The notes beneath the pieces were generated by a model, which ran no database searches, was not told the origin of the DNA, and saw only the letters and a list, made by a program, of their open reading frames with translations. This document shows positions 8,101-58,419 of a stretch of 64,000 nt of DNA, in pieces. The DNA is from Ignavibacteria bacterium (GTDB lineage: Bacteria > Bacteroidota > Ignavibacteria > Kapaibacteriales > Kapaibacteriaceae), in assembly GCA_947459875.1 (NCBI GenBank), contig CANHFG010000003.1:162-64161 (forward strand), written 5' to 3'. Numbering within the stretch: position 1 is the first letter of the stretch; the number at the start of each line of letters is the position of its first letter. A program made the position numbers and the translations under genes.

Positions 8101-11100
8101 AAGTTTCCGAGACTGACAAACCGGTTGCTCGTCAGGGGGCTCACGCCGTTCGTAACAGAACCGAGGCGCATTTTGCCCGAACCACCCTCGTCATACGTGA
8201 TGCCTTCGTCTGCACCAAGGATGCTTGCAAGTGGCGTACGCGAAACGACGTTTGTTCCATTGATCATGAGCAGATCAGCGCCTGGTGTTGTGCCCAGACC
8301 GATCATGCGGAGGGTGCTGCCAGTGACATTTGCCGTGACGGCATCGCCACCGATACCATCACCAAGGTTTACGGCGCCGTTGGCATTGAGCGTTCCGCGA
8401 ACGGATGTATTACCCGTGGCGGCGTTGACCGTGAAACGATCTGCGAACACTGCGAAGTTGCCCACCACATCCAGCTTCCGTGCCATTTCCACGTCGCCGG
8501 AGAACTGCACGAGGTCAGGTGTTGCCTGATAAAGCGTGCCCGAGAACTCAAGTCCTGAACCAGTGACGCGAAGCTCGCCTGACGAACCACCCGCAATATC
8601 TTCAGCAATGATCACAACATTCGTCGAGCTCGGATCGAGAACGACACCCATTTCCTGGGCCGCGTCCACGTACTTGAATGCACTAACCGAGGATGGTGCC
8701 AGGCTCAGGTATGAACCTGCGGTGACATCACCGACTCCATTGACGGCACCCGACTTCAGATCAATCTTGCCCGTGCCTTTTGAGCGAGCAGTGATGCCGT
8801 AGTTAGCTGTGCCCCCTGAGAGGGTCAACATGTCGTCGGCTGTATTTCCATTATTCGTGGTGAAGGTCAGTCGACCAGTCGTCCCAATGTCTACAAAGCG
8901 GTTGCCAGTGACGGGGTTCGTTCCGCGCGTCGCTGAACCAAGACGAATACGAGCGGCACCGCCTTCGTTGTACGAGACACCCTGATCTGCATCGATCAGA
9001 GACGTGATCGGTGTGCGCGACACAACATTGGTACCGTTGAGCATCATCACGTCGGTTCCTACAGCCGTGTTGATACCGGTCATCGTCATTTGGCTACCAG
9101 AGACGTTCACGGCAACTGCATCACCACCGTTACCGATGTTGACAGCGCCATTCATGTTCGCCGTACCGGTCAGAGTCGATGCGCCACCAACACTGAGGTT
9201 GCCATTCGTCGAGACGGTGAACGCCGCACCTGGATTGATCGCGATGTTACCAGTGCGTGTGAGGTTGCCCGCGCCGTCATCAGAGAGACTAGCATCAAGG
9301 ATGCCCGTTCCATTCGCGTCCCAACGGGTGAGACGGTTTGGCGTACCCGTACCAGTTACAATGTTGTTGATCTCACGCACCTGGAGTGCGCCGCCGGCTC
9401 CACGCATGATAAAGTTGTTGACCGTCGTTGTTGTCGGCAGGTTCGCCATCGTCACCGTTGCGGCATTCACCGTGAGGTTGTCTGCGGCAGCATCACCGAT
9501 CGTCGTGTTGCCATTAACGGCAAGAGACGACTGAAGTGTCGTAGCGCCAGTGACGTTGAGAGAATTATTGATGGTTGTTCCACCATTGATCGTGGTCGTT
9601 CCTCCGATCGTTACCGTTCCAGACTGCTGCGTAAGGTTACCGGTCAGTGTCGATGGACCGGCCACCGTCAATGCACCCGTTACATCCACGCCGCTGTTGG
9701 CGTCCACGTTGCCACTGAACGACACCTGACCGCCACCATTCTGCGTAACAGTTCCGGCGATCGTAGTGTTACCGGTGATCGTTGTGACACCGGTAACATT
9801 TGTCGGTCCGTTGAGCGCGATCGCACCTGTGCCACCTGCATTGATGGTAGCACCGTAGTTAACAGCTCCACCGTCCAGGACGACAATGTTGTTCGCTCCA
9901 CCACTCGTTGTAAATCGCAGATCGAAGTTGCCGAGATTGATATTTCGGTCAACTTGAAGCGTGTTGGCACCTGCACCATTGGTGACCGTTGAACCGAGTC
10001 GCACACGACCCGTTCCGTCGTCATTATATGTCAAACCCTGATCGGCATCGATCAGATTGGCAAAAGCCGAACGCGAAACAACGTTCGCGGCATTGATCAT
10101 CAGGATCTCGTTTCCGGGGACGGCTGGGAGGCCATTAATCCGGAGTGTACCTGCACCACCCGCAACGTCGATTACGACATTGTCACTCGTTCCGTCACCC
10201 ATGTTGACGTTGCCGTTCAGTGTCGCAGCACCGTTAACCGTCAGAGTACCGTTCACCGACGTATTGCCCGTAGCAGGTACTACCGAGAAGTTAGCGCCTC
10301 CAACCGTGAGGTTCTGACCAGTGACGTCGAGGCCATTAGTGACATCTACGTTACCATTAAAGGTGACCTGATTCGCCGCGCCTGTCTGAGCAATCGTCCC
10401 GGCGAATGTGCTCGCACCAGTGACATCGATACCGGAGTTAGCGTCGACATTCCCGTTCAGAGTAACCTGATTCGTAACACCGGTCTGTGTGAATGAGCTA
10501 TTGACTGTTGTTGGTCCATTTAGGCTAACGTTACCGCCCGTCTGAGTGAGCGATCCGTTCATCGTAGTCGCGCCCGTCACATCGACACCGCTGTTAGCGT
10601 CAACGTTACCATTGAATGTTACCTGACCGCCACTCTGCGTGTACGTTCCCGACTGCGTAGTGGCACCGGTTATGGACGTTGCTCCTGCAATGTTGGTCGT
10701 GCCGTTGATGGCCACAGAACCCGTACCAGCGGCGTTCATCGTGATACCGTAGTTGGCAACACCACCATCAAGGACCATGAGGTTCGCATTACCTCCATTG
10801 GTCGTGAAGGTCAGATCGTTTGCCGCCAAATTCACGAAACGATTTACGACAAGAGGCGAACCAAGTGTTGTGGTTGCACCAAGACGAACCGATCCCGTTC
10901 CACCTTCGTTGTATGTGATACCCTGATCTGCATTGATGAGTGCGGCGATCGGAGCGCGCGTGATAACGTTCGCTCCGTTGGCCATGAGAACGTCCGTACC
11001 TGCGACGTTCGGCAATCCGATCATCGTCATGACACCGCCACCGGCAGTATTGATGGTGACGTTATCGCCGGTGCCATCGCCAGCGACAACGTTGCCGCTG

Positions 11101-14100
11101 AGGGTTGACGAACCGGCAACATTCAATGTACTGTTGAATGTCGCTGCTCCATTAGCAGTGATCGAACCAGTCATCGATGTGTTGCCTGTCGCAGGGCTGA
11201 CGGTGAAGTTCGATCCACCGACCGTGAAGTTTGCGCCGGACACATCGAGACCATTGTTCGCATCAACATTCCCGCCGATGGTCACCTGGCCGCTTGCCTG
11301 AGTGAACGAACCAGTGACATTTGTAGCACCGGTCAGGGCAATGCTTCCCGTACCCGCAGCATTGATGGCGGCACCAAAGTTCGTGGCGTCGCCATCGAGC
11401 AAGAGAACCGTTGAATTGCCAGCGTTTGTCGTAAAGCGAAGATCGTTGTTGCCCATATTGACAAAACGATTGCCGGTCATCGTGGACGCCGTGTTGTTTA
11501 CCGCACCGAGGCGGACCTTTGCACTACCAGCCTCGTTATATGTCAGACCTTCATCGGCACCAACAAGCCCCGTGATCGGGAAGCGCGAAACTGCGTTCGT
11601 TGCACCGATCATGAGTACGTCTGCACCGGCCACGTTTGGTAGTCCATTCATGCTCAGTGCACCGCCACCTGCCGTGTTGATCGATACGTTGTCGCCATTA
11701 CCATCACCGGCAACGACATTGCCGCTCAGTGTTGCGCTTCCGACAACGGCCAGAGTGCTGTTGAGTGTGGCTGCTCCATTGGCTGTGAGCGTACCTGCCA
11801 TGGACGTGTTGCCATTGGCGGGATTGACAGTGAAGTTTGTTCCACCGACCGTGAGGTTGGCACCCGTGACATCAAGTCCGTTGTTCGCATCGACGTTTCC
11901 GCCGAAAGTTACCTGACCACCCGATTGCGTTACGGAATTTGTGATCGTTGTTGCGCCACCGATTGAAACCGTACCACCAGCCTGCGTGAGGTTGCCCGTC
12001 AGCGTCGTCAGACCGACGACGTCGACTCCTCCGTTAGCATCGACGTTTCCACCGAACGTCACCTGACCACCATTCTGCGTCAGCGTGCTGCTGAGCGTCG
12101 TGGCTCCCGTCACTCCAAGCGTACCGCCTACTGTAGCCGCACCACCGACGCTCAACCCAGTGCCAACCGTAGCGTTGTTCGTTGTGGTTACCGTGTTGAA
12201 CGTCACATTGCTCGTCGTGGCAATGTCCTGCGGCGTGCTGAGCGTGATGCTGCCTGCGCCGTTCGTTACCGCGATCTGGTTGGCTGTTCCCGTGATCGTT
12301 GCAATCTGAGGTGCAGCGCCAGTCGAGCCGATGAGGAGTTGGCCGTTTGTGAGAGTAACCGACTCGAGCTGGCCCGTTGCGTTCGTACGAACGGCCGCGT
12401 TAGCACCAAGTGGTGCCGCCGATGTTGAATAGATGGCCGTCGAAATCTCGAGGTTGCCCGTACCCGCATTACGAACAAGCACACCGCTTGACGATGTAGT
12501 GTTTCCAACGTTCGGGATCGCTACCGTGGCGGCGTTGATCCGCACCTGGTCGGCTGCTGCATCACCAAGTGTTGCATTTCCATTGACCGTGAGGTTACCG
12601 CCTGCTGACGAGAGAATGTTACTTGTTGGAACCCAAGCATTTGCTGCGGCATCCCAGCGAAGCGTCTGGTCCGACGTCGTTCCCGGCTGCGTCGTCGATG
12701 CGATGATGATATTTGGAGACGAGTACGTTACCGTCATCCCCGTACCGGCGACGATGTTGCCGACAGCCGGAGCCGTCGTAGCGCCCGTGCCAATGAGGAG
12801 CTGTCCGGCACCCTGCTGCGCACCTTCAACAATGCGGCCACCGCTGGATACCATTACACGGTTGTTGTTCAGAGCGGTCGATGAATTCGTACCGCCAAAC
12901 TGGATCGGAAGAACCCCTGACGAAATGCTCGATGCGTTCAGGTTTGTGATGAGCGATCCGTTCGCTGCAGGAAACTGCCCAAGGCTATTGAGCATGACGA
13001 TGTTGTTCGCTGTGTTAACGTTTACATCGCCCGCAATGAAGTTGTTGCGAAGAGCAGTGACCATGCGTGAACCCGCACCAGCTGCCGTAGAGAGCGTTGG
13101 TGATGGGTATGAGCCTGCCAGGTCGCCCGTTGCCGGACCTGACGGAGGAAGCGTCGTTGGGATAGTTCCCGGCGCAAGATCAATGACTGTCAGCGAGCCG
13201 TCGCCAACCTGCTCGGAACGCACAGCTCCGATGGCAATCTTCGGATTCGTTACTGCGAGATCGGCGATCTTAGGCGTCGTCACATTCAAGTCGAGGATCT
13301 TCGACGTTGTAACGGCGTTTGTCCGGATCAGAGGGTCCGGATAGGTTCCCGTGAGGTCGCCCCCTGCAGGAACGATGAATGGGAAGTTTGTAAGGGGCTG
13401 AACCGAGATCAAGGTAACACGACCTTTATCGTCAACCGTGATCCTTGGAACATTCAGGTTATCACCGTAGGTGCCGGCTGCGACACCTGTCGTGGAGAGC
13501 TTTGGAGTCGTCACGGCACCGTCGACGATCTTCGTCGTGGTGACAGCGTTATCGGTGATCTTCGTCGTCGTCACGGCACCATCAACAATCTTCGGAGTGG
13601 TGATCGCACCATCGGCGATCTTCGGTCCTGTAACAGCTCCAATGGCGATCGTTGGATTCGGATACGTACCCGTGAGGTCACCACCCGCTGGACCACGAGG
13701 CGGCAGCGATGTCGGAATAACACCAGGTGCGATCTTCGATGCCGTCACTGCCCCATCAACGATCTTGATCGTCGTGATGACACTGTCAACAAGTTTAGCT
13801 GTTGTAATCGTGCTATCGGCGATCTTGATCGCTGTTACAGCACCATCACGAATGTCGATCGTTGTGTTCGGGCCACTAGGGTTACCAATATCGATGGTCG
13901 ATTGAGGGCTTGCAAGGTTCTGAATCCCAACCAGCGTAATCGTCGACTCGATGTTGATCGTATCACCGGTGCGCGTTACAGCAACACCGTTTCGTCCAGC
14001 AATGACAAGGTTGCCCTCTGCCTGGTTCAACGAACGCACAAATCCGCGGGCGGATACGTTTACGCTATCGGCAATACCGGCACGTTCTGCGCGAACAGCG

Positions 14101-14471
14101 TAAGGAACAACCGCCAGTCGCGTGCGCGGGAATGGCGGCTGCCCTGCAAGGGCTGTCTCGAGGTAGGCCTGCGTGTTGAAGAAATCAACATTGGCCAGTG
14201 GCACCACGGCACCGAGATAGACGTTGAACAGTCCCTTCGTCAGGACGGTCTGCTGCGTCTCTTCCCAGAGAAGATTGCCCCCTACCGGCGCATCGTACAA
14301 GCGCATGACGAGATCATACTGGCCATCGTCGAGAGGCAAGCCATTAGGCAGCGTCAGCAAGCCTTGATAGCTTATCTGACGTTGGATCTGCGCATAGGTT
14401 GCCGTAACGGCTGTAGCCATTACGCCCACAACAAACAGCAGGGCGAGGCAAGGGCGAAGAAAACGGTTCAT
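2112..14471 (-). CDS. Giant (~4120 aa) repetitive, secreted fibre/adhesin-like protein with phage-tail-fibre-like modules
   Basis: 4127-aa ORF in the track. The likely start is ATG 14471 ([28 protein letters not shown], signal-like). The protein is rich in T/G/N/A/V, and I saw no Cys beyond the signal peptide. The N-terminus has a [21 protein letters not shown] domain, [10 protein letters not shown] motifs and 11-aa xAVTTxKIxDG repeats. There are 10 copies of a ..YNE..G..RLG....NRFVN...L.FTTNGG module. No PNPF-type T9SS CTD is visible at the C-terminus. Confidence 0.9.
   Translation of the reverse strand: [4119 protein letters not shown]
2634..3035 (-). repeat. Tandem 2 x 201-nt (67-aa) duplication inside the giant gene, with a 107-nt perfectly identical core
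   Basis: The unit [62 protein letters not shown].GT. occurs twice. Nt 2701-2807 equals 2902-3008 base for base, while the flanks differ at scattered positions. Confidence 0.9.
13176..13847 (-). repeat. Blocks of 33-nt (11-aa) periodic repeats xAVTTxKIxDG in the N-terminal part of the giant protein
   Basis: Examples are [87 protein letters not shown] and [33 protein letters not shown]. Coordinates come from my residue counting (aa ~217-440). Confidence 0.7.
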
Positions 14472-14494
14472 GGTTCTGACCATTAATGTGTTCA

Positions 14495-15058
14495 TTAGCG
14501 AATGATGGTAAGGGTCTGAGACTTGCGGAATGGTACGCCGGAGACTGTAGTCCCCTCGACCTCGTACACGTATGTTCCCGCCGGCAACGGAACCCCATAA
14601 TCGTCAACAGCTTGCAGCATTACGTCTTGCGAACCGGCCATAGAAACTTCGGCGGTGACGGTTCGCACGAGTGCGCCCAGCAAATTGTAGACTCGGATCT
14701 TTAGCCCCCCTTCAACAGGGGTGGCGAATCGAATTGTCGTATGCGTAGTAAAAGGATTCGGGAAGTTCCCGAACTCAGCAATTGACTGCTCTTCACGGTC
14801 GTTAACTCCGACCGTGCCATAGATATAAGGAACCCAGAACCCCTGGTAGAGGGCTGTGCTGTCTGAGCGCACCTGCGCCGAGATCACGGCCTGGCCGATC
14901 GTGCTCGAAATAGCCGAGCCGTTCGGGGAAGCCGATAGAAGTGACGCTCCGGATCCAATCACGGAGGATGTCAGTCTCGGTTGTGAGGTCGCTGAATGAG
15001 CTACCAAAATGAGCCCTCCCAGCAACAGCGTACAAAAACGACGCATTTGTTGCTCCAT
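14495..15058 (-). CDS. Small secreted protein made of a ..STIGQAVIS..YQGFW segment plus a T9SS-type C-terminal sorting domain
   Basis: This is track ORF 14495..15127, with likely start MEQQMRRFCTLLLGGLILVAHSATSQ (ATG 15058, or 15046). The C-terminus NFPNPFTTHTTIRF...KIRVYNLLGALV...LPAGTYVYEVEG...KSQTLTIIR fits the T9SS type-A CTD pattern. It lies immediately upstream of the giant gene. Confidence 0.7.
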   Translation of the reverse strand: MEQQMRRFCTLLLGGLILVAHSATSQPRLTSSVIGSGASLLSASPNGSAISSTIGQAVISAQVRSDSTALYQGFWVPYIYGTVGVNDREEQSIAEFGNFPNPFTTHTTIRFATPVEGGLKIRVYNLLGALVRTVTAEVSMAGSQDVMLQAVDDYGVPLPAGTYVYEVEGTTVSGVPFRKSQTLTIIR

Positions 15059-25104: not shown

Positions 25105-26103
25105 TCAGTCCTGGTATGTGGCAACGTCGCGAATAGCGCGCACACCGGAGCTCCCCTTGTCGCGACGTTCCATCGCCACAAGAGCAGAAGCATAGATCTC
25201 GCGCCAGGTGAGACCGAACTTCACCATCAGCTCTTCCGGATCGCCGGAGCCACCGAAGGAGTCCTTGACACCGACAAACTCGATCGGCACCGGAGCATTC
25301 TTTGCTGTGCATTCCGCAACTGCCCCGCCAAGTCCGGCGTGAACCTGGTGCTCTTCAGCCGTTACGATACAGCCGCATTCACGAGCGGCCTGCGTGACCG
25401 TGGCGAAGTCGAACGGCTTGACTGTGTGCACGTTAACGACGCGGGCAGATATGCCCTTCTTGGCAAGCTCCTTGGCGGCAAGAATGCTCTCCCACACCAG
25501 CGCGCCGTTGGCGATGAGCGCAACATCGGTACCATCCATGAGAACATTGGCCTTGCCAAGCTCGAACGGCGACTCCTCTGTCGTAAACATTGGTACCGGT
25601 GAACGACCGAAACGGATGTAGGCCGGTCCAATCATTTCGCCCATGGCAACGGTGGCCTTGCGAGCTTCGTAGTAATCGGCAGGGACGATCATCGTCATGT
25701 GCGGAAGCGTACGCAGAAACGCGACTTCTTCCAGCACCTGGTGCGTTGCACCATCCGGCCCAACACTGATACCGGCGTGTCCTCCGCCGATCTTGACATT
25801 TGCTTCGTTGTATGCCACCGAAATACGCAGCTGATCGGCGTTGCGCAAAGCACAGAACGCACCATACGAAGCAAAGAATGGGATCTTGCCACTGAGTGCG
25901 AGACCTGCCGCGATCGTTGTTGCGTTCTGTTCGGCGATACCAATTGAGAAGAACCGATCCGGGAACTTCTCTTTGAACAGCGAGGTCATCACCGATCCGG
26001 TGATATCCCCACCAAGTACAACAATATTGCTGTGGCGCTCGCCAAGATCAACGAGTCCGTCACCAAAGCCAAATCGCGTGGGTTTTGATCCGAGAAGGTC
26101 CAT
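25105..26103 (-). CDS. Transketolase, C-terminal (pyrimidine-binding) subunit
   Basis: 332 aa. ...RFFSIGIAEQNATTIAAGLALSGKIPFFASYGAF... is typical of split transketolase subunit B. Confidence 0.9.
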   Translation of the reverse strand: MDLLGSKPTRFGFGDGLVDLGERHSNIVVLGGDITGSVMTSLFKEKFPDRFFSIGIAEQNATTIAAGLALSGKIPFFASYGAFCALRNADQLRISVAYNEANVKIGGGHAGISVGPDGATHQVLEEVAFLRTLPHMTMIVPADYYEARKATVAMGEMIGPAYIRFGRSPVPMFTTEESPFELGKANVLMDGTDVALIANGALVWESILAAKELAKKGISARVVNVHTVKPFDFATVTQAARECGCIVTAEEHQVHAGLGGAVAECTAKNAPVPIEFVGVKDSFGGSGDPEELMVKFGLTWREIYASALVAMERRDKGSSGVRAIRDVATYQD

Positions 26104-26223
26104 CAGGTTTCAGGTTTCAGGTTTGAGGTTTGAGGTGTGGGGTGTGAGGTCACTCGTCACTCTGTCACTACGTAATTCCGTAACTCCGTAATTCCGTAAT
26201 TCCGTAATTCCGTAATTCTCTTC
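26104..26223. repeat. 120-nt mosaic of short tandem repeats that fills the whole spacer between the two transketolase half-genes
   Basis: The plus strand reads (CAGGTTT)x3, GAGGTTT, GAGGTGT, GGGGTGT, GAGGTCACTCGTCACTCTGTCACTA, then (CGTAATTC)x6 with one CGTAACTC. No non-repeat base lies between ATG 26103 and TAA 26224-26226 apart from tcttc. Confidence 0.95.
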
Positions 26224-27123
26224 TTACGGCATCGTCGACATTTCTTCCAGGGCGGCTATCGCTTGGTCTTTGGAAGGGGGCTTACCGTGCCATTCAAACT
26301 TGTCATTCATGAACGAAACGCCGTGGCCCATATAGGTTCGCGCAATGATCGCTGTCGGCTTACCGGTCTTATTGCGCTGGTTCTCAAGGAACCGGTCGAA
26401 TCCGCGCATGAGGTCGGCGTAGTCGTGACCGTCAACGACAATGGTGTCGAAGCCAAAGGATTCGCACTTGGCATCGATCGGATACACGTTCATCACATCA
26501 GGCACGCGGCCGTCAATCTGACAATCGTTATTGTCGATCAGCCAGCAGAAGTTATCCAGCCCGAAATGCGAAGCCGCCATTGCTGCTTCCCAGACCGAAC
26601 CTTCTTGGAGCTCTCCGTCACCGGTGAGCGAGAACACGCGGCGGTCGTTTCTGTCGACCAGCTTGTCACTCATAGCCATGCCGACGGCGATGGAGATGCC
26701 CTGACCAAGTGAACCGGACGATGTTTCTACGCCGGGAAGGTGCATGTCGCGTCCCGGATGGCCCTGCAGACGCGTGTTGTACTTACGCAACGTCTCCTGT
26801 TCTTGCTTAGGGTAGCATCCGGCGTTTGCCAGCGCGGCATACATGACCGGCGCCATGTGTCCAGCCGACAGAACGAATCGGTCGTGCGTTGTATCATCCA
26901 TCCGGGCTGGATCGTACCGCATGTACCCACCAAAGTAGAGAACGGCGAAAATATCGGCCGATCCGAGGGGGCCGCCGCTATGACCGGAGCCGGCGCGCAC
27001 GAGCATTCGCACGATATCGCGGCGGATCTCATTAGCGATCGGTGCAAAATCCTCCGCAGACCGACGTTCATTAGTGAACGTGGTGGTGTTGAAGTCCAGC
27101 GAGGCCTTGGTTTCCTGTGTCAT
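26224..27123 (-). CDS. Transketolase, N-terminal (TPP-binding) subunit
   Basis: 299 aa. It contains ..SGHSGGPLGSADIFAVLYF.. and ..SLTGDGELQEGSVWEAAM.. (GDG-x-QEG TPP motif). Confidence 0.9.
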   Translation of the reverse strand: MTQETKASLDFNTTTFTNERRSAEDFAPIANEIRRDIVRMLVRAGSGHSGGPLGSADIFAVLYFGGYMRYDPARMDDTTHDRFVLSAGHMAPVMYAALANAGCYPKQEQETLRKYNTRLQGHPGRDMHLPGVETSSGSLGQGISIAVGMAMSDKLVDRNDRRVFSLTGDGELQEGSVWEAAMAASHFGLDNFCWLIDNNDCQIDGRVPDVMNVYPIDAKCESFGFDTIVVDGHDYADLMRGFDRFLENQRNKTGKPTAIIARTYMGHGVSFMNDKFEWHGKPPSKDQAIAALEEMSTMP

Positions 27124-34605: not shown

Positions 34606-34629
34606 CATTGCACCATCAGAAAATCATAC

Positions 34630-34658
34630 GAGCCGCCTTTGGTGGCTCGTTTCGTTTT
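34630..34658 (+). terminator. Rho-independent terminator
   Basis: GAGCCGCC-ttt-GGTGGCTC is followed by GTTTCGTTTT. The Shine-Dalgarno GAGGAG and ATG 34670 come directly after it. Confidence 0.55.
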
Positions 34659-34669
34659 GAGGAGACCCC

Positions 34670-35800
34670 ATGAAGTTCGCAACCAAGGCCATTCATATTG
34701 GTCAAGAACCTGAGCGCCTTACCGGCGCTGTGACCGTGCCGCTTTTTCAGACATCGACCTACGCACAGCATGAGATCGGTCACCATACCGGATTCGAATA
34801 CGCCCGGACGCAAAACCCGACTCGCTTTGCATGGGAGGACAACCTGGCGGCTATGGAAGGTGGCGTCGATGCATTCGCCTTTGGAAGCGGTCTGGCAGCC
34901 ATCGACGCGGTCATGCGTCTGCTTTCCTCCGGCGACCATGTGATCATGGCAGAGGACATGTATGGAGGCACGTTCCGCCTGGCAGAACGCATCCTGCGCC
35001 GCTTCGGCCTGGACTTCTCGTACGTTGACATGCGCGATCCGGCGAATGTTGCGAATGCCATTCGCCCGAGCACCAAAATGATCTACACAGAGACGCCGAC
35101 CAATCCGATGATGACCATCACGGACATCGCGGCGATCTCCGCCATCGCCAGCCAGGGCGGCTGCCACATGGTGGTCGACAACACCTTTGCCACCCCTTAC
35201 GCCCAGCGTCCGCTGGAGATGGGGGCTTCGATCGTGGTTCACTCTGCAACCAAGTACCTGGGAGGACATAGCGATCTCGTTAGCGGCATCGTTACGACCA
35301 ACAGTGAGTCTATCGCCGAGCAGCTCGGTTTCATCCAGAATGCCGCCGGCGCTGTCCCCGGCCCCTTTGATTGCTGGCTGCTGCTGCGCTCATCCAAGAC
35401 TCTTTCCGTGCGAATGGATCGTCACAGTTCAAATGCTCAGACCATCGCCGAGTTCTGTGCATCTCACCCAGCGATCCTCGCGACACATTACCCCGGACTG
35501 AAGAGTCATCCCCAGCACGAACTCGCCAAGCGCCAGATGTCTGTCTTTGGTGGCATGATCTCGATCGAACTCGGCTCGCGTGAACGCGCCGTCGCGGTCA
35601 CGAACAAGCTCAAACTCTTCACGCTTGCCGAATCACTCGGTGGCGTCGAATCCCTCGTATGCCACCCTGTGAGCATGACGCACGGATCGATCCCAAAAGA
35701 ACAACGCGAGCGACTCGGCGTCACCGAGGGCCTGATTCGCCTTTCCTGCGGTATCGAAGATGTCGAGGACCTCATGGCGGATATTGAGGCTGCGCTTTAG
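34670..35800 (+). CDS. Cys/Met-metabolism PLP-dependent enzyme (cystathionine gamma-synthase/gamma-lyase/beta-lyase family)
   Basis: MKFATKAIHIGQEP....PLFQTSTY at the start and SATKYLGGHSDL (PLP-lysine motif) fit the family. Substrate specificity cannot be decided from the sequence alone. Confidence 0.85.
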   Translation: MKFATKAIHIGQEPERLTGAVTVPLFQTSTYAQHEIGHHTGFEYARTQNPTRFAWEDNLAAMEGGVDAFAFGSGLAAIDAVMRLLSSGDHVIMAEDMYGGTFRLAERILRRFGLDFSYVDMRDPANVANAIRPSTKMIYTETPTNPMMTITDIAAISAIASQGGCHMVVDNTFATPYAQRPLEMGASIVVHSATKYLGGHSDLVSGIVTTNSESIAEQLGFIQNAAGAVPGPFDCWLLLRSSKTLSVRMDRHSSNAQTIAEFCASHPAILATHYPGLKSHPQHELAKRQMSVFGGMISIELGSRERAVAVTNKLKLFTLAESLGGVESLVCHPVSMTHGSIPKEQRERLGVTEGLIRLSCGIEDVEDLMADIEAAL

Positions 35801-35817
35801 GACATCTGCGCCGCGTA

Positions 35818-35887
35818 GGGTGCCTTCGGCACGAGGAGGAACCTCAAACCTCACACCCCACACCCCACACCTCAAACCTCACACCCG
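35818..35887 (+). repeat. Head sequence GGGTGCCTTCGGCACGAG followed by seven heptamers (GAACCTC AAACCTC ACACCCC ACACCCC ACACCTC AAACCTC ACACCCG)
   Basis: Read directly from the sequence. The heptamers span 35839-35887. They are the reverse-complement families of those at 26125-26152. Confidence 0.9.
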
Positions 35888-35941
35888 CTCGAAGCGCCGA
35901 GCGTCGTAGTTTTGTGGCCCACGAACTTCGGAGTCCCGTCG

Positions 35942-37612
35942 ATGAATCTCGCTGATATTCGCGCTGCCCATCAAGCTACTCTCGATGCTGCCATCAAGGC
36001 CAATGCCGAGCGGACGTTTCATGCCCATTGGCCGGAAGCCCCAAGTGGGAAGATCTACGGCGAGACAGCAAACGACGAAGCGTTAGCACGTTTTCAGTCT
36101 CAGCTGAACAACCGTTTCGAACGCCTTGGTGATTCCGAAACATGGATGGGCGAGGAGATCTCTCCATACGGTTTCTCGCTTGGCATTACATATCCTGCCC
36201 TTGATGTCGAGACGCTCGTCTCGCGAGCCAGTGCAGCGCAGACGGCGTGGCAGTCCCTTACTCCGTTGGATAGGGCTGCGATCCTTGTCGAGGCTCTTGA
36301 ACGTGGAGCAAAGTCATTCTTCGAGATCGGCTATGCAACGCAGCACACCACCGGACAGGGATTCGTGATGGCCTTTCAGGCCTCGGGTCCGCATGCGTTC
36401 GATCGTGCGCTCGAAGCCACAGCGCTTGGCCTTGCTGCTCAATCCTCGTTTACTCCGGGGGTGACGTGGACAAAGCCGATGGGTAAGATCAGCGTCAGCA
36501 TCGAAAAGTCTTATCGCATCGTGCCGCGCGGCATCAATCTTGTTATCGGCTGTTCGACGTTTCCGGTGTGGAACACTGTTCCCGGGATGTTTGCCGGACT
36601 TGTCACGGGCAACAGTGTTATCGTGAAGCCCCATTCCGGTGCCGTCTATCCGATCGCGATCGTCATCGCGGCACTGCGCGATGTTCTTATTGGGCTTGGG
36701 ATGGACCCCGGCATTATCCAGATGGCTGTTGATACAGCTGCTGAGCCCCTTACACTTGACCTCGTCAAGCATCCATCGGTCGGCATCATCGATTACACCG
36801 GCGGCCCGACCTTTGGCGCCGTCGTCGAGAAGGTAGCTGCCGAGCATCGCAAGGTGGTCTTCACAGAAAAGGCGGGCGTCAACTGCGTCATCCTCGACTC
36901 GACGGATGACCTTGACAAGGCCATGGACAATCTTGCCTTCTCGCTGACGCTGTACTCGGGTCAGATGTGCACAGCCCCGCAGAACGTCTTTATATCCAAG
37001 GATGGCATGCAGGTAGGGGGCGAGCACGTTTCCGTAGATGCCGTTGCTGCAAAGCTCCGCGAAAAGATCGATGCACTGGTCTTCAATGAGAAGGCCGGTC
37101 CGGGCACGCTCGGTGCCGTGCAGAATCCTATCACCGCAGCCCGCGTTGCCGAAGCTACCGCGCTCGGCCTTGAGGTTGTTCGCAGCAGTGAAGCCATCGC
37201 GCAACCCGGCTTTGACGGTTCACGTTCGATGTCGCCCCTTGTGTTGAAGACAGACACCAAGCATGCCGACATTTATACAAAGGAGTGGTTCGGGCCGATC
37301 TCCTTCATCGTCGTGACTGACTCTTTCGAGGACTCTCTTAACGAGGTCGTCAGCAGCATTCATGAGCACGGCGCACTGAGCAGCCTTGTCTACACCACGA
37401 ATGCCCACCGTATGCAGATCGCCGAAGATGCAATTGTCGCGGTCGGCGCACCGGTGGCCTTCAACTTCAACAGCTTTGTCTGGGTAAACCAGTCGGCCGC
37501 TTTCAGCGACTTCCACGGCACAGGCTGCAACCCCGCCGGTAACGCCACTTTCGCCGACTGGCAGTTTGTTACGAACCGGTACAATGTGGTGGGCGTGCGC
37601 AAGCAGGCGTAA
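35942..37612 (+). CDS. Aldehyde dehydrogenase family protein, PaaN-like (ring-opening aldehyde dehydrogenase of phenylacetate catabolism)
   Basis: ~556 aa from ATG 35942. The N-terminus ..ERTFHAHWPEAPSGKIYGE.. and the overall length recall PaaN, and YSGQMCTAPQNVF contains the catalytic-Cys region. The family-level call is solid; the PaaN assignment is tentative. Confidence 0.65.
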   Translation: MNLADIRAAHQATLDAAIKANAERTFHAHWPEAPSGKIYGETANDEALARFQSQLNNRFERLGDSETWMGEEISPYGFSLGITYPALDVETLVSRASAAQTAWQSLTPLDRAAILVEALERGAKSFFEIGYATQHTTGQGFVMAFQASGPHAFDRALEATALGLAAQSSFTPGVTWTKPMGKISVSIEKSYRIVPRGINLVIGCSTFPVWNTVPGMFAGLVTGNSVIVKPHSGAVYPIAIVIAALRDVLIGLGMDPGIIQMAVDTAAEPLTLDLVKHPSVGIIDYTGGPTFGAVVEKVAAEHRKVVFTEKAGVNCVILDSTDDLDKAMDNLAFSLTLYSGQMCTAPQNVFISKDGMQVGGEHVSVDAVAAKLREKIDALVFNEKAGPGTLGAVQNPITAARVAEATALGLEVVRSSEAIAQPGFDGSRSMSPLVLKTDTKHADIYTKEWFGPISFIVVTDSFEDSLNEVVSSIHEHGALSSLVYTTNAHRMQIAEDAIVAVGAPVAFNFNSFVWVNQSAAFSDFHGTGCNPAGNATFADWQFVTNRYNVVGVRKQA

Positions 37613-37618
37613 GGAAGA

Positions 37619-37670
37619 GAATTACGGAATTACGGAATTACGGAAGTACGGAATTACGGAATTACGGAAC
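37619..37670 (+). repeat. (GAATTACG)x6.5 octamer array, with one GAAGTACG variant
   Basis: Read directly from the sequence. It starts 6 nt after the TAA at 37610-37612. It is the same unit, in the same sense orientation, as the array at 26171-26218. Confidence 0.95.
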
Positions 37671-37710: not shown

Positions 37711-37724
37711 TTACCGGTCACTCG

Positions 37725-38879
37725 TCATTCCGTCATGCTGTGATTGCCACCGAATCGGTAGCTAACACTGAGATTGAATAAGATGTCAGCGAAAGCGGCA
37801 TCACCGATCACCTCGACACCTCGGATTTGAGTACGGAGCTTGTCAATGTGGCTCTGCGTGCGATTACGGTAGGCGGCGATCGGCGTGCTGAGGAAAACGG
37901 AAAGTGCAGCCGTGGAGTAACCGATACCAGGTTCAACGCTTACAGCATAGCCGGGTCGGCGGAATCCGTCACTACCGCCGATCAGGTCGGAGGAAGGCAC
38001 ACCCTCAGCGCGAGCGCCAATGTATGCTGTCCATCCGTTGAACATTCCGTACATCACTCCCAGACGTACACCGAACTGATCGGCACTCGAGTACTCCGAG
38101 CTGTCAGCAGTGCCTGCCGGATTGGCAGTGCGCAGTCGAACACCATTCGTGTTGGTTAGATTCGACATGTAGAAGACGTTACTCATAAGAACAAAGTCGG
38201 TTGCCAGCGTATGAATGCCCTGAGCATCGAGGGTGAGTCCAAAGCCACCGTCGCCGAGCTGGATCGATTGATCAACGAAACCCGCCACAGTCTGATCTCT
38301 CTGCGGTCCCTGATTGAAGAAATCATCCACAACGTCATACTTGCCCGTGGGAAGCTTCACACCAAGGGCTACCGAGTAATTGGACTCCGAGGTTGATGGA
38401 TCAAAGAGCCAGTAGCCAACAGAGAGCCGCACGTCACCCAGACCTGCCGACGAGGTCATTCGCCTGTCGCCAGTCCATGTGCCGATAAGAGCTCCCGTGC
38501 TGTCGAACCGCGGGTTTCCCCCATGCTCATAGAGCGATGTGCGGTCGTTGTAGTTGAGTGGCACCACCGCATTGACGAAGATCCTGTCCGTCAATCCATA
38601 ACTCAATGCCAGATCGATCGAACCGGCGTTGTTGATGACCTCCGTCCCCTGCTCGACGCGGAACGATTCTTCATGATCACCGCGGAAGTGGCGGAAAGAG
38701 CGGAAAAACCGCGCACCCGTTACGACGTTGAACTCACCCTCTCTGAGATTGAAGGTGTTGCCCGTATTCGTTCCGCACATGGTGCCGCCACGTACAGCCA
38801 CGCAGCCCTGAGACCGCAGCTCTGCCGAAGCAAGGGCCAGAATTGAGACAATGCAGATGAAGACGTAGCGAGTTGCCAT
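37725..38879 (-). CDS. Outer-membrane beta-barrel protein (transporter/MetA-phenol-pathway-like family, tentative)
   Basis: ATG 38879 gives MATRYVFICIVSILALASAELRSQ (signal peptide). The sequence shows an alternating Gly/aromatic beta-strand pattern and ends ...LFNLSVSYRF GGNHSMTE. The last codons and the stop lie in GTCA-type repeat units. Confidence 0.6.
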   Translation of the reverse strand: MATRYVFICIVSILALASAELRSQGCVAVRGGTMCGTNTGNTFNLREGEFNVVTGARFFRSFRHFRGDHEESFRVEQGTEVINNAGSIDLALSYGLTDRIFVNAVVPLNYNDRTSLYEHGGNPRFDSTGALIGTWTGDRRMTSSAGLGDVRLSVGYWLFDPSTSESNYSVALGVKLPTGKYDVVDDFFNQGPQRDQTVAGFVDQSIQLGDGGFGLTLDAQGIHTLATDFVLMSNVFYMSNLTNTNGVRLRTANPAGTADSSEYSSADQFGVRLGVMYGMFNGWTAYIGARAEGVPSSDLIGGSDGFRRPGYAVSVEPGIGYSTAALSVFLSTPIAAYRNRTQSHIDKLRTQIRGVEVIGDAAFADILFNLSVSYRFGGNHSMTE

Positions 38880-38989
38880 GCAAGTACCCCGTCGAAACAG
38901 TAGTGATTGACGGGGCGCAACATAGAGGCATGCAGTGCCAGCCTGCAAGAGCAAGAAACCTATGTTGCTTAATTTTCGACGCGCAAATT

Positions 38990-39052
38990 CAGGTTTCAGG
39001 TTTCAGGTTTCAGGTTTCAGGTTTCAGGTTTCTACTCGTGCCGAAGCCGCCC
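38990..39052 (-). repeat. (AAACCTG)x6 heptamer array (sense = minus strand) preceded by the head GGGCGGCTTCGGCACGAGTAG
   Basis: The plus strand reads (CAGGTTT)x6 at 38990-39031, then CTACTCGTGCCGAAGCCGCCC up to the stop codon at 39053-39055. Confidence 0.95.
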
Positions 39053-40078
39053 TCAAAGCCCGATCACCCACTGAACAACGGGGATCGGAAGGGGCGACCA
39101 ATCAGAGTTGTTCTCAAGATTGAGAAGGTTCCCCTTGTAGCCAGCAAAGCCAAACTGCCAGTAGGAGCCAGAACCGTACTCCCAGCGAATGGCAGGGATG
39201 ATGAAGATGTTGGAGTAGGTCGTGTACGTGCGCGAGAAACTCTGAGATGGATTGTAGTAGTCGTAATAGTCCGCTCGCCTCCAGCGTCCATCTGGGAGTA
39301 TAACTGAGCCAGAGGATGAGATCATAAACGCGTCAAGGATCAGGCGAATGTTGCGGGCGAGCTTCATAGAAACTCCCAGAGCCAGATAAGCGCGGGGCGA
39401 GGTCACTTGGCTGGTTTCGGGACGCTCAGACATATCCGGTCTTGAATACGTCTCCACCGCTAGGGTGGTTATCCCAAAGCCACCCGTGAGGGAGAAGCTC
39501 GTCGATCCCGTCATCATCGACAGCGTCAGCGTCGGCGCTGCCAGGAAGTTTCGGTCTGCAAGGCTTCCGCCCCATCCCACAATGCCCCCTGCACCGAGCC
39601 AGAGATTTTCGCCGAGTGGCATGCGGTACATTGCCGTGGCAACAATGGGTGCGCTGAACCATGAGGCAAGCAGTCCAACACTGAATCGCTCGGTCGGAAA
39701 CGCCTCCAGTGCCATACCAGCAAGATTGAACTGCAACGTCGATGTTCCCTTTGGCATCGGCAGAGCGCTTGACGTGAGCACGTAGGTGGCCGTCTGCACT
39801 GCGCCGTCCGCACTTTGATCCGACGTTGGTTGGTCAGCGATGGTGGAGATCGTTCGGACGAGATGCTTTGGCAACACCAGACGAGTCTGATCCGTGAGTA
39901 CAACAGTCAGCTCACGGGCATTCATGCTGATGATGCGACCGCTAATGATCGAACCGTCATGACGCTCAACATCAAAAATCCTGACGGTGTCCGTCCACTC
40001 AATCTGCTGGGCGATGCTCGGCATGAACGCGCCCATGAGGAAGATCACAATAAGGAGTCCGGTACGCATGCTGGTCAC
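39053..40078 (-). CDS. Hypothetical secreted/outer-membrane protein, paralog of 40075..40974
   Basis: GTG 40078 overlaps the upstream stop as GTGA; the alternative start ATG 40069 gives MRTGLLIVIFLMGAFMPSIAQQ (signal peptide). The N-terminal ~60-aa module ends in ..VLPKHLVRTIS. The rest is rich in Gly and aromatics and looks barrel-like. Confidence 0.65.
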   Translation of the reverse strand: MTSMRTGLLIVIFLMGAFMPSIAQQIEWTDTVRIFDVERHDGSIISGRIISMNARELTVVLTDQTRLVLPKHLVRTISTIADQPTSDQSADGAVQTATYVLTSSALPMPKGTSTLQFNLAGMALEAFPTERFSVGLLASWFSAPIVATAMYRMPLGENLWLGAGGIVGWGGSLADRNFLAAPTLTLSMMTGSTSFSLTGGFGITTLAVETYSRPDMSERPETSQVTSPRAYLALGVSMKLARNIRLILDAFMISSSGSVILPDGRWRRADYYDYYNPSQSFSRTYTTYSNIFIIPAIRWEYGSGSYWQFGFAGYKGNLLNLENNSDWSPLPIPVVQWVIGL

Positions 40079-57741: not shown

Positions 57742-57846
57742 GTACCCAGTACCCAGTACCCAGTACCCAGTACCTAGTACCCAGTACCCAGTACCCAGTA
57801 CCCAGTACCCAGTACCCAGTACCTAGTACCCAGTACCCAGTACTCT
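57742..57846. repeat. ~14.5 tandem heptamers GTACCCA (sense strand TGGGTAC), with two GTACCTA variants
   Basis: I counted unit by unit. Units 5 (57770-57776) and 12 (57819-57825) carry the C-to-T variant. The array overlaps the 3' end of the gmhA-like ORF. Confidence 0.95.
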
Positions 57847-58419
57847 GGCCTCGATCATCTCACACCACACATGTCCGATCAGAATATGGCACTCCTGAAT
57901 GCGGGCCGTGACAGCAGACGGGACGATTACTGAGTGATTGCAGAGCTTTGCCAAAACGCCGCCGGTTCCCCCGAGCAGGCCGATGGTGCGAACACCTCGT
58001 TGGCGGGCTTCTTCCACAGCCATGACAACATTCCGGGAGGTACCGCTCGTGGAGATTGCAATCAGTACGTCACCCGATGTGCCAAAAGCTTCTACCTGAC
58101 GGCTGAAGACCCGGTCGAACCCGTAGTCATTGCCGCCTGCCGTGAGTATGCTGCTGTCGGTTGAAAGGGCAAGCGCTTTGATAGCACGGCGATTGACATC
58201 GCTCTTGAGCCGGACCACCAGCTCAGCAGCGATATGCTGACTATCGGCCGCACTGCCGCCGTTACCGCAGAGCATGATCAGGCCGTTGCTCATAGCGCAG
58301 TCGGCCAAAAGCTGACCGCACGTATGGATTGCATCCAAGTGCTGCTCCAACAAGCGCGTCTTGGTATCGATGGACTCGCGTAGAATGCCCTCGATCATGT
58401 CGTTAGTCATTGCTGCCAT
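57823..58419 (-). CDS. gmhA: SIS-domain phosphoheptose isomerase
   Basis: ...LIMLCGNGGSAADSQHIAAELV... and ..DVLIAISTSGTSRNV.. are GmhA/DiaA-type motifs. The last 6 codons (VLGTGY) and the TAG stop are encoded by the heptamer array. Confidence 0.75.
   Translation of the reverse strand: MAAMTNDMIEGILRESIDTKTRLLEQHLDAIHTCGQLLADCAMSNGLIMLCGNGGSAADSQHIAAELVVRLKSDVNRRAIKALALSTDSSILTAGGNDYGFDRVFSRQVEAFGTSGDVLIAISTSGTSRNVVMAVEEARQRGVRTIGLLGGTGGVLAKLCNHSVIVPSAVTARIQECHILIGHVWCEMIEARVLGTGY

Follow-up and report, generated by a model that had tools for sequence, protein, structure and literature searches.

Short tandemly repeated repetitive (STRR) heptamers of cyanobacteria are intergenic heptamer repeats, and intergenic heptamer arrays have long been catalogued in Cyanobacteria, Beggiatoaceae and some Bacteroidetes, without agreement on their origin and role. 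Long simple sequence repeats built of heptanucleotides are on record from the intergenic DNA of bacteria (Mrazek et al. 2007, as summarised in PMC4679880), and arrays of TAACTGA from Beggiatoaceae, Cyanobacteria and Bacteroidetes (MacGregor 2015, PMC4679880). The present work concerns a 64,000-nt stretch of DNA from an Ignavibacteria bacterium (assembly GCA_947459875.1, contig CANHFG010000003.1, positions 162 to 64,161; hereafter, the window), where two arrays of A/C-rich heptamers (AAACCTS/ACACCYC) are each preceded by a short, closely similar sequence, referred to below as the head. The block is best regarded (with a probability of about 0.6) as a local, polar, slippage-prone composite satellite that sits directly behind stop codons within a single sub-clade of Candidatus Kapabacteria (Bacteroidota) and in which the head is a relic unit of a hairpin repeat joined to the heptamers.

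Other described repeats also bear on this locus. Repetitive extragenic palindromes (REP) and bacterial interspersed mosaic elements (BIME) of Enterobacteria and Pseudomonas, including the REPINs moved by REP-associated tyrosine transposases (RAYT), are short GC-rich extragenic palindromes that lie close behind stop codons, frequently several in succession, and form hairpins in single-stranded DNA or RNA. In E. coli, REP stabilises the upstream mRNA and can affect translation termination within ~15 nt of the stop. Mycobacterial interspersed repetitive units (MIRUs) are polar relative to their operon and extend over stop and start codons. At the level of DNA structure, a GNA triloop closed by C-G forms an exceptionally stable mini-hairpin, d(GCGNAGC) (PMC13037366, PMC3201870).

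Head 1 opens the stretch 35818-35852 (+), GGGTGCCTTCGGCACGAGGAGGAACCTCAAACCTC, and head 2 opens the reverse complement of 39052-39018, GGGCGGCTTCGGCACGAGTAGAAACCTGAAACCTG. As the preliminary description of this DNA had it, the two stretches are identical at 29 of 35 positions on recounting (18 of 21 in the head part alone) and share an exact 12-nt core, CTTCGGCACGAG, exact copies of which are found in the window at these two sites only (35824-35835, +, and 39035-39046, -). The position of both heads behind stop codons and their common sense orientation are likewise borne out. Head 1 lies 17 nt 3' of TAG 35798-35800, the stop of the gene of a Cys/Met-metabolism pyridoxal phosphate (PLP) enzyme (34670-35800, +), head 2 adjoins TGA 39055-39053, the stop of a gene of a 338-aa hypothetical protein (hyp; 39053-40069, -), and each is sense-oriented relative to its upstream gene. 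The same sense orientation, also noted earlier, holds for the heptamers at 26104-26152 on the minus strand, between two transketolase subunit genes.

A chance resemblance of two unrelated flanks finds nothing in its favour beyond the small sample of two copies. Seven more matches of CTTCGGCACGAG with one or two mismatches, situated within coding sequence, bring the total in the window to nine against 8.3 expected, i.e., to the chance level. Still, a 12-nt exact match at an equal offset from two arrays has a probability of ~4^-12 per offset, far beyond chance, 18 of 21 positions agree in the head, and both copies fall into a unit family documented in the relatives L027, L018 and L038, which already refutes coincidence and leaves it a practically negligible probability. 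The earlier contention that the copies did not arise by independent slippage is thereby supported: they are related by descent.

Orthologous loci of relatives (designated by L numbers) were collected via homologues of the PLP enzyme. The head turns out to be one unit of a hairpin minisatellite; such a unit is 16-18 nt long and reads GGG, the first arm of a 4-5-bp stem, the loop T-N-C, the second arm and GA(K). The stem types number at least six and include GCAGC/GCTGC (type A), GTGCC/GGCAC, GTGC/GCAC, GCGAC/GTCGC, GCGGC/GCCGC, ACGGC/GCCGT, ACAGC/GCTGT and ACGC/GCGT. The minisatellite itself gains and loses units, of which the window lineage has 1-2, L027 3-7 and L038 at least 6, so the notion of a "non-repetitive" recognition head has to be abandoned.

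Head 1 is an intact type-B unit, GGG-GTGCC-TTC-GGCAC-GAG (35818-35835, +), with a perfect 5-bp stem and a TTC loop (RNA folding dG -7.2 kcal/mol, z -2.15); its orthologue in L027 is the last unit ahead of the heptamers, GGGTGCCTCCGGCACGAG. Head 2 (39035-39052, -), GGG-GCGGC-TTC-GGCAC-GAG, is a hybrid unit whose left arm is of the GCGGC/GCCGC type and whose right arm is of the GTGCC/GGCAC type; its folding shows no advantage over shuffles (dG -2.9, z -0.14), it bears two substitutions in L009, and L018 keeps an intact GCGGC-TTC-GCCGC unit immediately 5' of it. Since the heads are hairpin-repeat units, the shared 12-mer represents the loop, the right arm and the GAG of one unit type, and the two copies resemble each other because both descend from one hairpin-unit family. 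The 17 nt from the PLP stop to head 1 (35801-35817, +) are filled by a decayed unit, GACATCTGCGCCGCGTA, which matches at 12 of 17 positions (by eye) the type-A units GGCAGCTGCGCTGCGAT holding the equivalent post-stop place in L027 and L040.

Relative L027 (GCA_046092945.1; PLP enzyme 94% identical), with an inverted gene order and an extra PF05635 gene, carries tandem hairpin units at all four junctions around its aldehyde dehydrogenase (ALDH), PF05635 and outer-membrane-protein (OMP) genes, in the sense of the upstream gene. These arrays start 0-5 nt 3' of the stop codon, their first unit is always of type A, and the order A-C-B recurs. After the PLP stop, TAA is followed by GGCAGCTTCGCTGCGAT, GGGCAGCTCCGCTGCGAG and GGGTGCCTCCGGCACGAG, then by GTGGAATCCC AAACCTC ACACCTC and so on; after the ALDH stop, there are seven units, then AACCCC ACACCCG AAACCTG ACACCCG AAACCTG; five units stand behind the hyp stop, followed by AACCTG AAACCTG AAACCCG AAAACTG; and after the OMP stop, seven units and no heptamers. 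A/C-rich heptamers (AACCYS/ACACCYS) follow the hairpin units, that is, at three of the four junctions. The idea of head and tail as a defined element therefore stands in part: a polar composite recurs, with hairpin units and then A/C-rich heptamers after three different stops and with all four arrays opening with one unit type, but the head itself is repetitive. The composite is polar and set against stop codons.

An ungapped alignment of 20 distinct units was assessed with 500 shuffles and with slid controls. In it, 94% of the cells are paired (11-55% in the slid controls), both sides change at 4 of 5 pairs, and 22 cells are compensatory, a count as high being met in 0 of 500 shuffles; since the units are paralogues, these figures stand for several distinct, perfectly complementary stem types and do not count independent events. 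All units point the same way, as direct head-to-tail repeats with no alternation. L038, from sample ERZ17175165 and with the ancestral gene order, has a contig ending in at least six units of GGGGGACGCTTCGCGTA at the hyp-to-OMP junction, which means that the hairpin repeat exists without the ALDH inversion described below; in L040, units follow the PLP stop and the contig then ends. By contrast with these genomes, neither heads nor hairpin units nor heptamers are present at the PLP/ALDH, OMP/ALDH and hyp/OMP junctions of L019-L022 and L028, all with the ancestral order.

As in REP and BIME, the unit is an extragenic palindrome forming a hairpin (5-bp stems, 94% of cells paired) just after stops. 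Unlike them, it is smaller by half, with a hairpin of 13 nt per 16-18-nt unit, is repeated directly and not in alternation, is joined to a heptamer tail, and has local copies instead of hundreds of dispersed ones (as judged by type-B head patterns), with no RAYT gene in the window or the neighbouring loci scanned. Intergenic variable-number tandem repeats, e.g., the loci of multiple-locus typing (MLVA) and mycobacterial MIRUs, share with it the 10-100-nt class of unit and the copy number varying by strain; here, in distinction to MIRUs, each unit is a self-complementary hairpin with covarying stems, and MIRU-type small open reading frames (ORFs) are absent.

At the centre of the unit, C-T-N-C-G never varies except at N, where each of the four bases is seen, as expected for a GNA loop. 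The complementary strand reads C-G-N-A-G, with the exact GCGAAGC in type-A units; the TNC signature corresponds to the GNA DNA mini-hairpin on the other strand and to no known stable RNA loop. The C-GNA-G of the opposite strand thus hints at a structure at the DNA level, with the difference that d(GCGNAGC) is a structural motif and not a genetic element (PMC13037366, PMC3201870). RNA folding of whole arrays of these GC-rich repeats is no better than that of their own shuffles (z -1.0 and +0.1).

The question of dispersal was addressed by scans for head plus array in one genome per GTDB species (pattern CTTCGGCACGAGNAGRAACCT) and in JGI metagenomes (pattern TTCGGCACGAGNNNNAACCTNAMACC). The former returned 13 matches in all: the two window loci account for three of them through their orthologues in L014 (two matches; 91% identity with the window) and L009 (one match; 89%), a further four stand alone in coding sequence (~2 expected by chance), and six belong to an unrelated palindromic element of Latescibacterota and Gemmatimonadota metagenome-assembled genomes (MAGs). 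The latter returned two matches on one 213-kb contig, again the two orthologous loci (L017, 99%, and L018, 95% identical). A relaxed search for hairpin units in the window gave 38 against 32 expected, i.e., no excess, and no intergenic match with GG...GA flanks besides head 1. Within the limits of the scan patterns, the block is therefore not dispersed, and in the available sequences the composite is confined to one neighbourhood. The preliminary description had suggested, among other things, a mobile or templated element, to be refuted if the genome held no further head-plus-array copies; by that measure, the suggestion is largely refuted, since the window, the species-representative MAG, the 213-kb contig and both collections yielded only the two orthologous loci.

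A non-autonomous mobile or templated element, deposited in one orientation at stop codons and moved in trans by a HUH/RAYT-like or templated-addition enzyme, would account for the same unit order in four L027 arrays, each no more than 5 nt from an unrelated stop; C-TNC-G, being C-GNA-G on the other strand, would offer it a very stable single-stranded DNA mini-hairpin (PMC13037366, PMC3201870), and arrays do flank an inserted PF05635 gene in two lineages. Such an element is improbable in view of the copies lying within ~5 kb, with the type-B head nowhere else in the window, the 213-kb contig and the representative MAG. No terminal inverted repeats or target-site duplications were evident by eye at the block boundaries, so that, with its copies local only, the block does not qualify as a transposon or a miniature inverted-repeat transposable element (MITE). 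Neither the window ORFs nor the neighbouring loci examined gave, in a Pfam scan, any gene of a transposase, RAYT, integrase or reverse transcriptase. In viral contigs, the seven matches of a two-unit hairpin pattern are all chance ones in GC-rich coding sequence, and a BLAST search of plasmids with the L027 hairpin array found no match. Nor is an integron attC/cassette architecture apparent, the genes between arrays being of mixed orientation and the arrays consisting of direct repeats; this judgement involved no formal search for attC core motifs. Rfam 15 covariance models (E<=1) run on eight related loci and L027, including L009 and L014 with the same heads, gave nothing relevant, the lone snoRNA-model match being a chance one inside a gene. 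On the preferred reading, the block is local, at the junctions of a rearrangement hot spot, and not a dispersed mobile element.

The rearrangement in question concerns the ALDH gene (35942-37612, +), which gene tables show to be inverted relative to sister species. The order PLP(+) ALDH(-) OMP(-) hyp(-) is found in L019-L022, L028 and L038/39 (PLP enzyme 90-92% identical), and the outgroup L025/26 (80%) has ALDH on the minus strand as well; therefore, it is the window lineage, with ALDH on the plus strand in the window, L014, L009, L017/18 and L027, that underwent the inversion. Its breakpoints are the stop codons of the PLP-enzyme and OMP genes. At the right junction, two GWRTGAC units, CGGAATGACGAGTGACCG (37715-37732, -), span the new OMP stop: the ancestral C-terminus ...CACAGCATG-TAA has become ...CACAGCATG-ACGGAATGA in the window, the two extra codons and the new TGA stop coming from the inverted spacer. 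The 11-mer TGACGAGTGAC follows the PLP stop (+) in L021 and the OMP stop (-) in the window, which is where the inversion would have carried it. A 45-nt ALDH leader, including TAGTTTTG, travelled with the gene, and the leader CGTCGTAGTTTTGTG...ATG is conserved in all relatives in either gene orientation. An inversion with stop-codon breakpoints has thus taken place in the same lineage as the composite.

This history bears on the possibility that the heads are sites of a site-specific invertase flipping the 3.2-kb segment with ALDH and OMP as a regulated switch. The heads do face each other as inverted repeats (29 of 35) around two genes, in a neighbourhood that did undergo an inversion. The actual inversion, however, took in ALDH alone instead of the whole inter-head segment, collinearity holds for all five genomes that possess both heads, and no recombinase gene lies nearby; a regulated switch is accordingly very unlikely. 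The ALDH-only inversion and the collinearity of the two-head genomes also rule out the heads as ends of an invertible or mobile 3.2-kb segment.

Separately, the PF05635 gene (23S rRNA intervening-sequence protein/four-helix-bundle family; L027 9119-9544, L025 12310-12732, L026 12212-12634) is inserted at different junctions in two lineages and is flanked by oppositely oriented arrays, which are hairpin units in L027 and (AAGAGGCG)n, up to 35 copies, in L025/26.

Tandem arrays were located with Tandem Repeats Finder (TRF), and five intergenic array loci were recognised in the window, all arrays being situated between ORFs. Copy 1 (35836-35886, +) consists of the linker GAGG and the heptamers AACCTC AAACCTC ACACCCC ACACCCC ACACCTC AAACCTC ACACCC (TRF 35841-35885, period 7, 6.4 copies), and its unit count and sequence are different in every relative. 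Copy 2 (38988-39034, -) is a TAG linker with (AAACCTG)x6 (TRF 38988-39032, 100% matches, 6.4 copies), represented by 6 units in the window, 4 in L014, 8 in L018 and ~4 in L009. Heptamer number and sequence thus vary among genomes 89-99% identical, and both parts of the composite change by whole units.

In the makeup of these arrays, i.e., period 7 by TRF, intergenic location and unit-step variation, the known class of intergenic heptanucleotide repeats is readily recognised, and they belong to it; the head does not. The resemblance to the arrays of PMC4679880 comprises tandem 7-nt intergenic units, mixed heptamers in a spacer, 7-nt-step indels between strains, arrays just 5' of starts, contigs ending in arrays and a suspected link to rearrangement. 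The differences lie in the units (AAACCTS/ACACCYC, xxTKAC, AATTACGG), in the 5' coupling to a hairpin repeat, in the anchoring at the upstream stop, and in the organisms, Kapabacteria being absent from PMC4679880.

On the sense strand, the AAACCTS/ACACCYC tracts are C-rich, G-poor and unusually unstructured: copy 1 has 27 C vs. 3 G in 50 nt, and copy 2, with 12 C and 7 G in 45 nt, is less structured than 199 of 200 shuffles (z +2.28). At 50 and 45 nt, these tracts are shorter than a typical rut stretch of Rho-dependent terminators (roughly 60-80 nt or more). Directly after the copy-1 array comes a hairpin, CGCTCG-AAGCGC-CGAGCG (35886-35903, +), a terminator-like scan match whose place is taken in L027 by an inverted unit, GTGC-GAA-GCAC. 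It is followed in the conserved ALDH leader by TAGTTTTG (35907-35914, +), a box of the TAnnTTTG form, which is the -7 promoter consensus of Bacteroidota. This box is depleted overall, and 3-4 of its 6 occurrences are just upstream of start codons; to our knowledge, the phylum largely lacks Shine-Dalgarno and Hfq-type regulation. A scan for sigma-70 promoters and terminators showed no enrichment; it gave a canonical terminator at 34628-34650 and none at the heads, which do not resemble intrinsic terminators either, being followed by GAGGAGGAACC or GAGTAGAAACC and by no T-runs.

These features invite the alternative of a functional 3'-UTR or intercistronic RNA module, with the hairpin as an exonuclease barrier, weak terminator or protein site and the heptamers as a Rho-loading (rut-like) site, insulating spacer or leader. 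It would agree with the sense orientation of all composite loci near stop codons, with the covarying stems and the stability of head 1 (dG -7.2), with heptamer tracts in which C greatly exceeds G (27:3 and 21:4) and structure is scarcer than in shuffles, with arrays ending just 5' of the conserved promoter box or abutting the second transketolase ATG (an arrangement conserved across species), and with heptamer arrays persisting at orthologous spacers though their units drift. As against this, head 2 is a non-folding hybrid with further substitutions in L009, the heads are no better conserved than the adjacent non-coding flanks, and at these junctions the block is missing from L019-L022 and L028, the majority of the sister species examined. 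Furthermore, no U-tract follows the hairpins, C-richness is not shared by the octamer, (TGGGTAC) and (AAGAGGCG) arrays, a terminator within the split-transketolase operon would be counter-productive, and the TNC loop matches the DNA mini-hairpin of the other strand and no known stable RNA loop. On the whole, an RNA module is the foremost alternative, though a rather unlikely one. If the block has any function, its polarity and stop anchoring point to the transcript, where small 3' stem-loops would be followed by an unstructured A/C-rich tract.

Returning to the composite satellite, its origin may be pictured as follows. Whole arrays would have been copied among neighbouring junctions within ~5 kb, probably by ectopic recombination or template switching, and the hairpin and heptamer parts then evolve by replication slippage and unit-unit deletion, as shown by the copy number differing between near-identical strains and by the hybrid nature of head 2. 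In the window lineage, the arrays would have shrunk to one intact and one decayed unit (copy 1) and to one hybrid unit (copy 2), the heads probably being decaying remnants. Inverted post-stop arrays at the PLP and OMP stops, as still seen in L027, are a plausible substrate of the ALDH inversion.

Several points weigh against this picture. Neutral slippage does not explain the stop-codon anchoring and the uniform sense polarity, which is consistent with the upstream gene in ~9 of 9 array loci of four unit families (~six free within-family comparisons, p ~0.02), and the covarying stems, together with the constancy of C-TNC-G at their centre, suggest that the hairpin is being maintained. The assemblies of L027, L038 and L040 come from short reads and may misstate the number of units per array, and genome-wide absence rests on type-B head patterns, one representative MAG and the JGI data; other unit types could be dispersed. 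A bolder reading, and a rather improbable one, is that of a genuine copy-competent Kapabacteria module, polar and anchored at stops, which would serve either as a new kind of transcript-level 3'-end or insulator element or as a recombination substrate for the inversion of single genes and the insertion of small cassettes, such as the PF05635 gene, between stop codons, with the window heads as its decaying footprints.

In a limited literature search, the combination of coupling to a covarying hairpin minisatellite, strict sense polarity, stop anchoring and stop-to-stop gene inversion was not found described. The locus provides an unusually clear comparative series, from sister genomes that lack the block to others whose hairpin arrays are expanded or decayed, in which the arrays are polar to transcription, lie against stops and coincide with a stop-breakpoint inversion. 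Should the polarity reflect a function at the RNA level, this would point to a new type of 3'-end element in Bacteroidota-related bacteria; should it reflect hairpin instability at the DNA level, the locus would illustrate from nature how small palindromic satellites can drive rearrangement of the genome around them. In practical terms, such blocks break short-read assemblies at gene ends. The contigs of L002, L003, L004, L029, L038 and L040 end inside arrays or at an array edge, and short-read assemblies of this lineage are hence systematically broken at gene 3' ends.

The remaining arrays of the window show similar placement. The whole spacer between the two transketolase subunit genes is a mosaic of octamers, GTGAC units and heptamers, TAA-GAAGAG-(AATTACGG)6-(AGTGACNN)3-ACACCYC x2-AAACCTC x2-AAACCTG x3-ATG (26104-26223, -; TRF 26103-26218, heptamers 26103-26150), which ends directly at the ATG and has no hairpin head in front of its AAACCTS array (26104-26152). 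In L019 and L021, this spacer holds (AAACCTG)n abutting the ATG and preceded by a perfect hairpin, ATTCCCGC-TTTC-GCGGGAAT (L019 1103-1130, L021 about 1108-1135, - strand), where the window has octamers; the hairpin fits the ATTCCC-N8-GGGAAT form of Neisseria dRS3 repeats.

Directly 3' of the ALDH stop TAA, a G-GAAGAG head precedes (AATTACGG)x6 octamers (37613-37669, +; TRF array 37619-37669). The octamer arrays too have a common head, TAA-G(G)AAGAG, after two unrelated stops, those of ALDH (37610-37669, +) and transketolase-N (26224-26226 / 26171-26223, -), which is kept in orthologues while the unit changes (AAGTACGG/AAGTACTG in L009 and AGTTACGG/AGTTACAG in L014).

The array (TGGGTAC)x14.6 (57742-57843, -) opens within the last codons of a SIS-domain gene and precedes a DUF2911 gene; elsewhere, the same spacer contains (TGATTAC/TGATGAC)x17 (L029) or (TGACCGA)x3.7 (L030), so arrays persist at orthologous spacers while units drift. 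The SIS-domain ORF (57823-58419, -) has ~6 codons inside (TGGGTAC)n and its stop at a TAGGTAC variant unit, and the L030 orthologue ends within (TGACCGA)n; with the ORF end lying in the array, a change of array length could alter the protein C-terminus. In L025/26, (AAGAGGCG)35 begins within the PLP stop codon, an inverse array follows the ALDH stop, and the pair flanks two inserted genes. As a general rule, a stop triplet in the heptamer blocking all three frames was rejected: it is true of AAACCTG, TGATTAC and TGACCGA and fails for AAACCTC, ACACCCC, TGGGTAC and AATTACGG.

The palindromic element met in Latescibacterota and Gemmatimonadota, ~130 nt long and conserved, was located at L005 1150-1273; L006 1792-1931 and 6804-6920; L010 2079-2212; L011 142-278; L015 5803-5944; and L016 4704-4844, 3672-3804 and 2359-2467, an 8-kb part of L016 containing three clear copies and possibly a fourth. 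It is a long imperfect hairpin with 7-nt periodic arms (5' GGTAGAC/GGGAGAG-like; 3' CTCTCCC/GTCTCCC) and the tip CTTCT-TGCC-TTC-GGCA-CG-AGAAG, has a T-run at the end of some copies and is without an Rfam match. It has 24 of 26 nt in common with head 1, sharing TGCCTTCGGCACGAGRAGRAACCTCA; homology was considered and set aside as probably coincidental. An nhmmer profile of the element matches the window only over the 27 nt preselected by the search pattern (E 0.002), and its three extra upstream matches arise because both sequences are TTC-loop hairpins.

Judged by the names that near-identical proteins bear, the window belongs to Candidatus Kapabacteria/Kapaibacterium, in the phylum Bacteroidota; it is core chromosome, with genes of ribosomal proteins S2 and S9, EF-Ts, RRF and QueC and the split transketolase genes. 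It also contains a giant ORF of ~4127 aa (2112-14495, -) with internal 18-nt, 30/60-nt and 201-nt tandem periodicities (TRF 2659-3035, 13507-13624 and others), which probably encodes a repetitive surface protein. Finally, L014, the GTDB representative with this locus, is deposited as "MAG: Chitinophaga pinensis"; its proteins match Kapabacteria/Kapaibacterium MAGs and its GC content is ~56%, and the name looks wrong.

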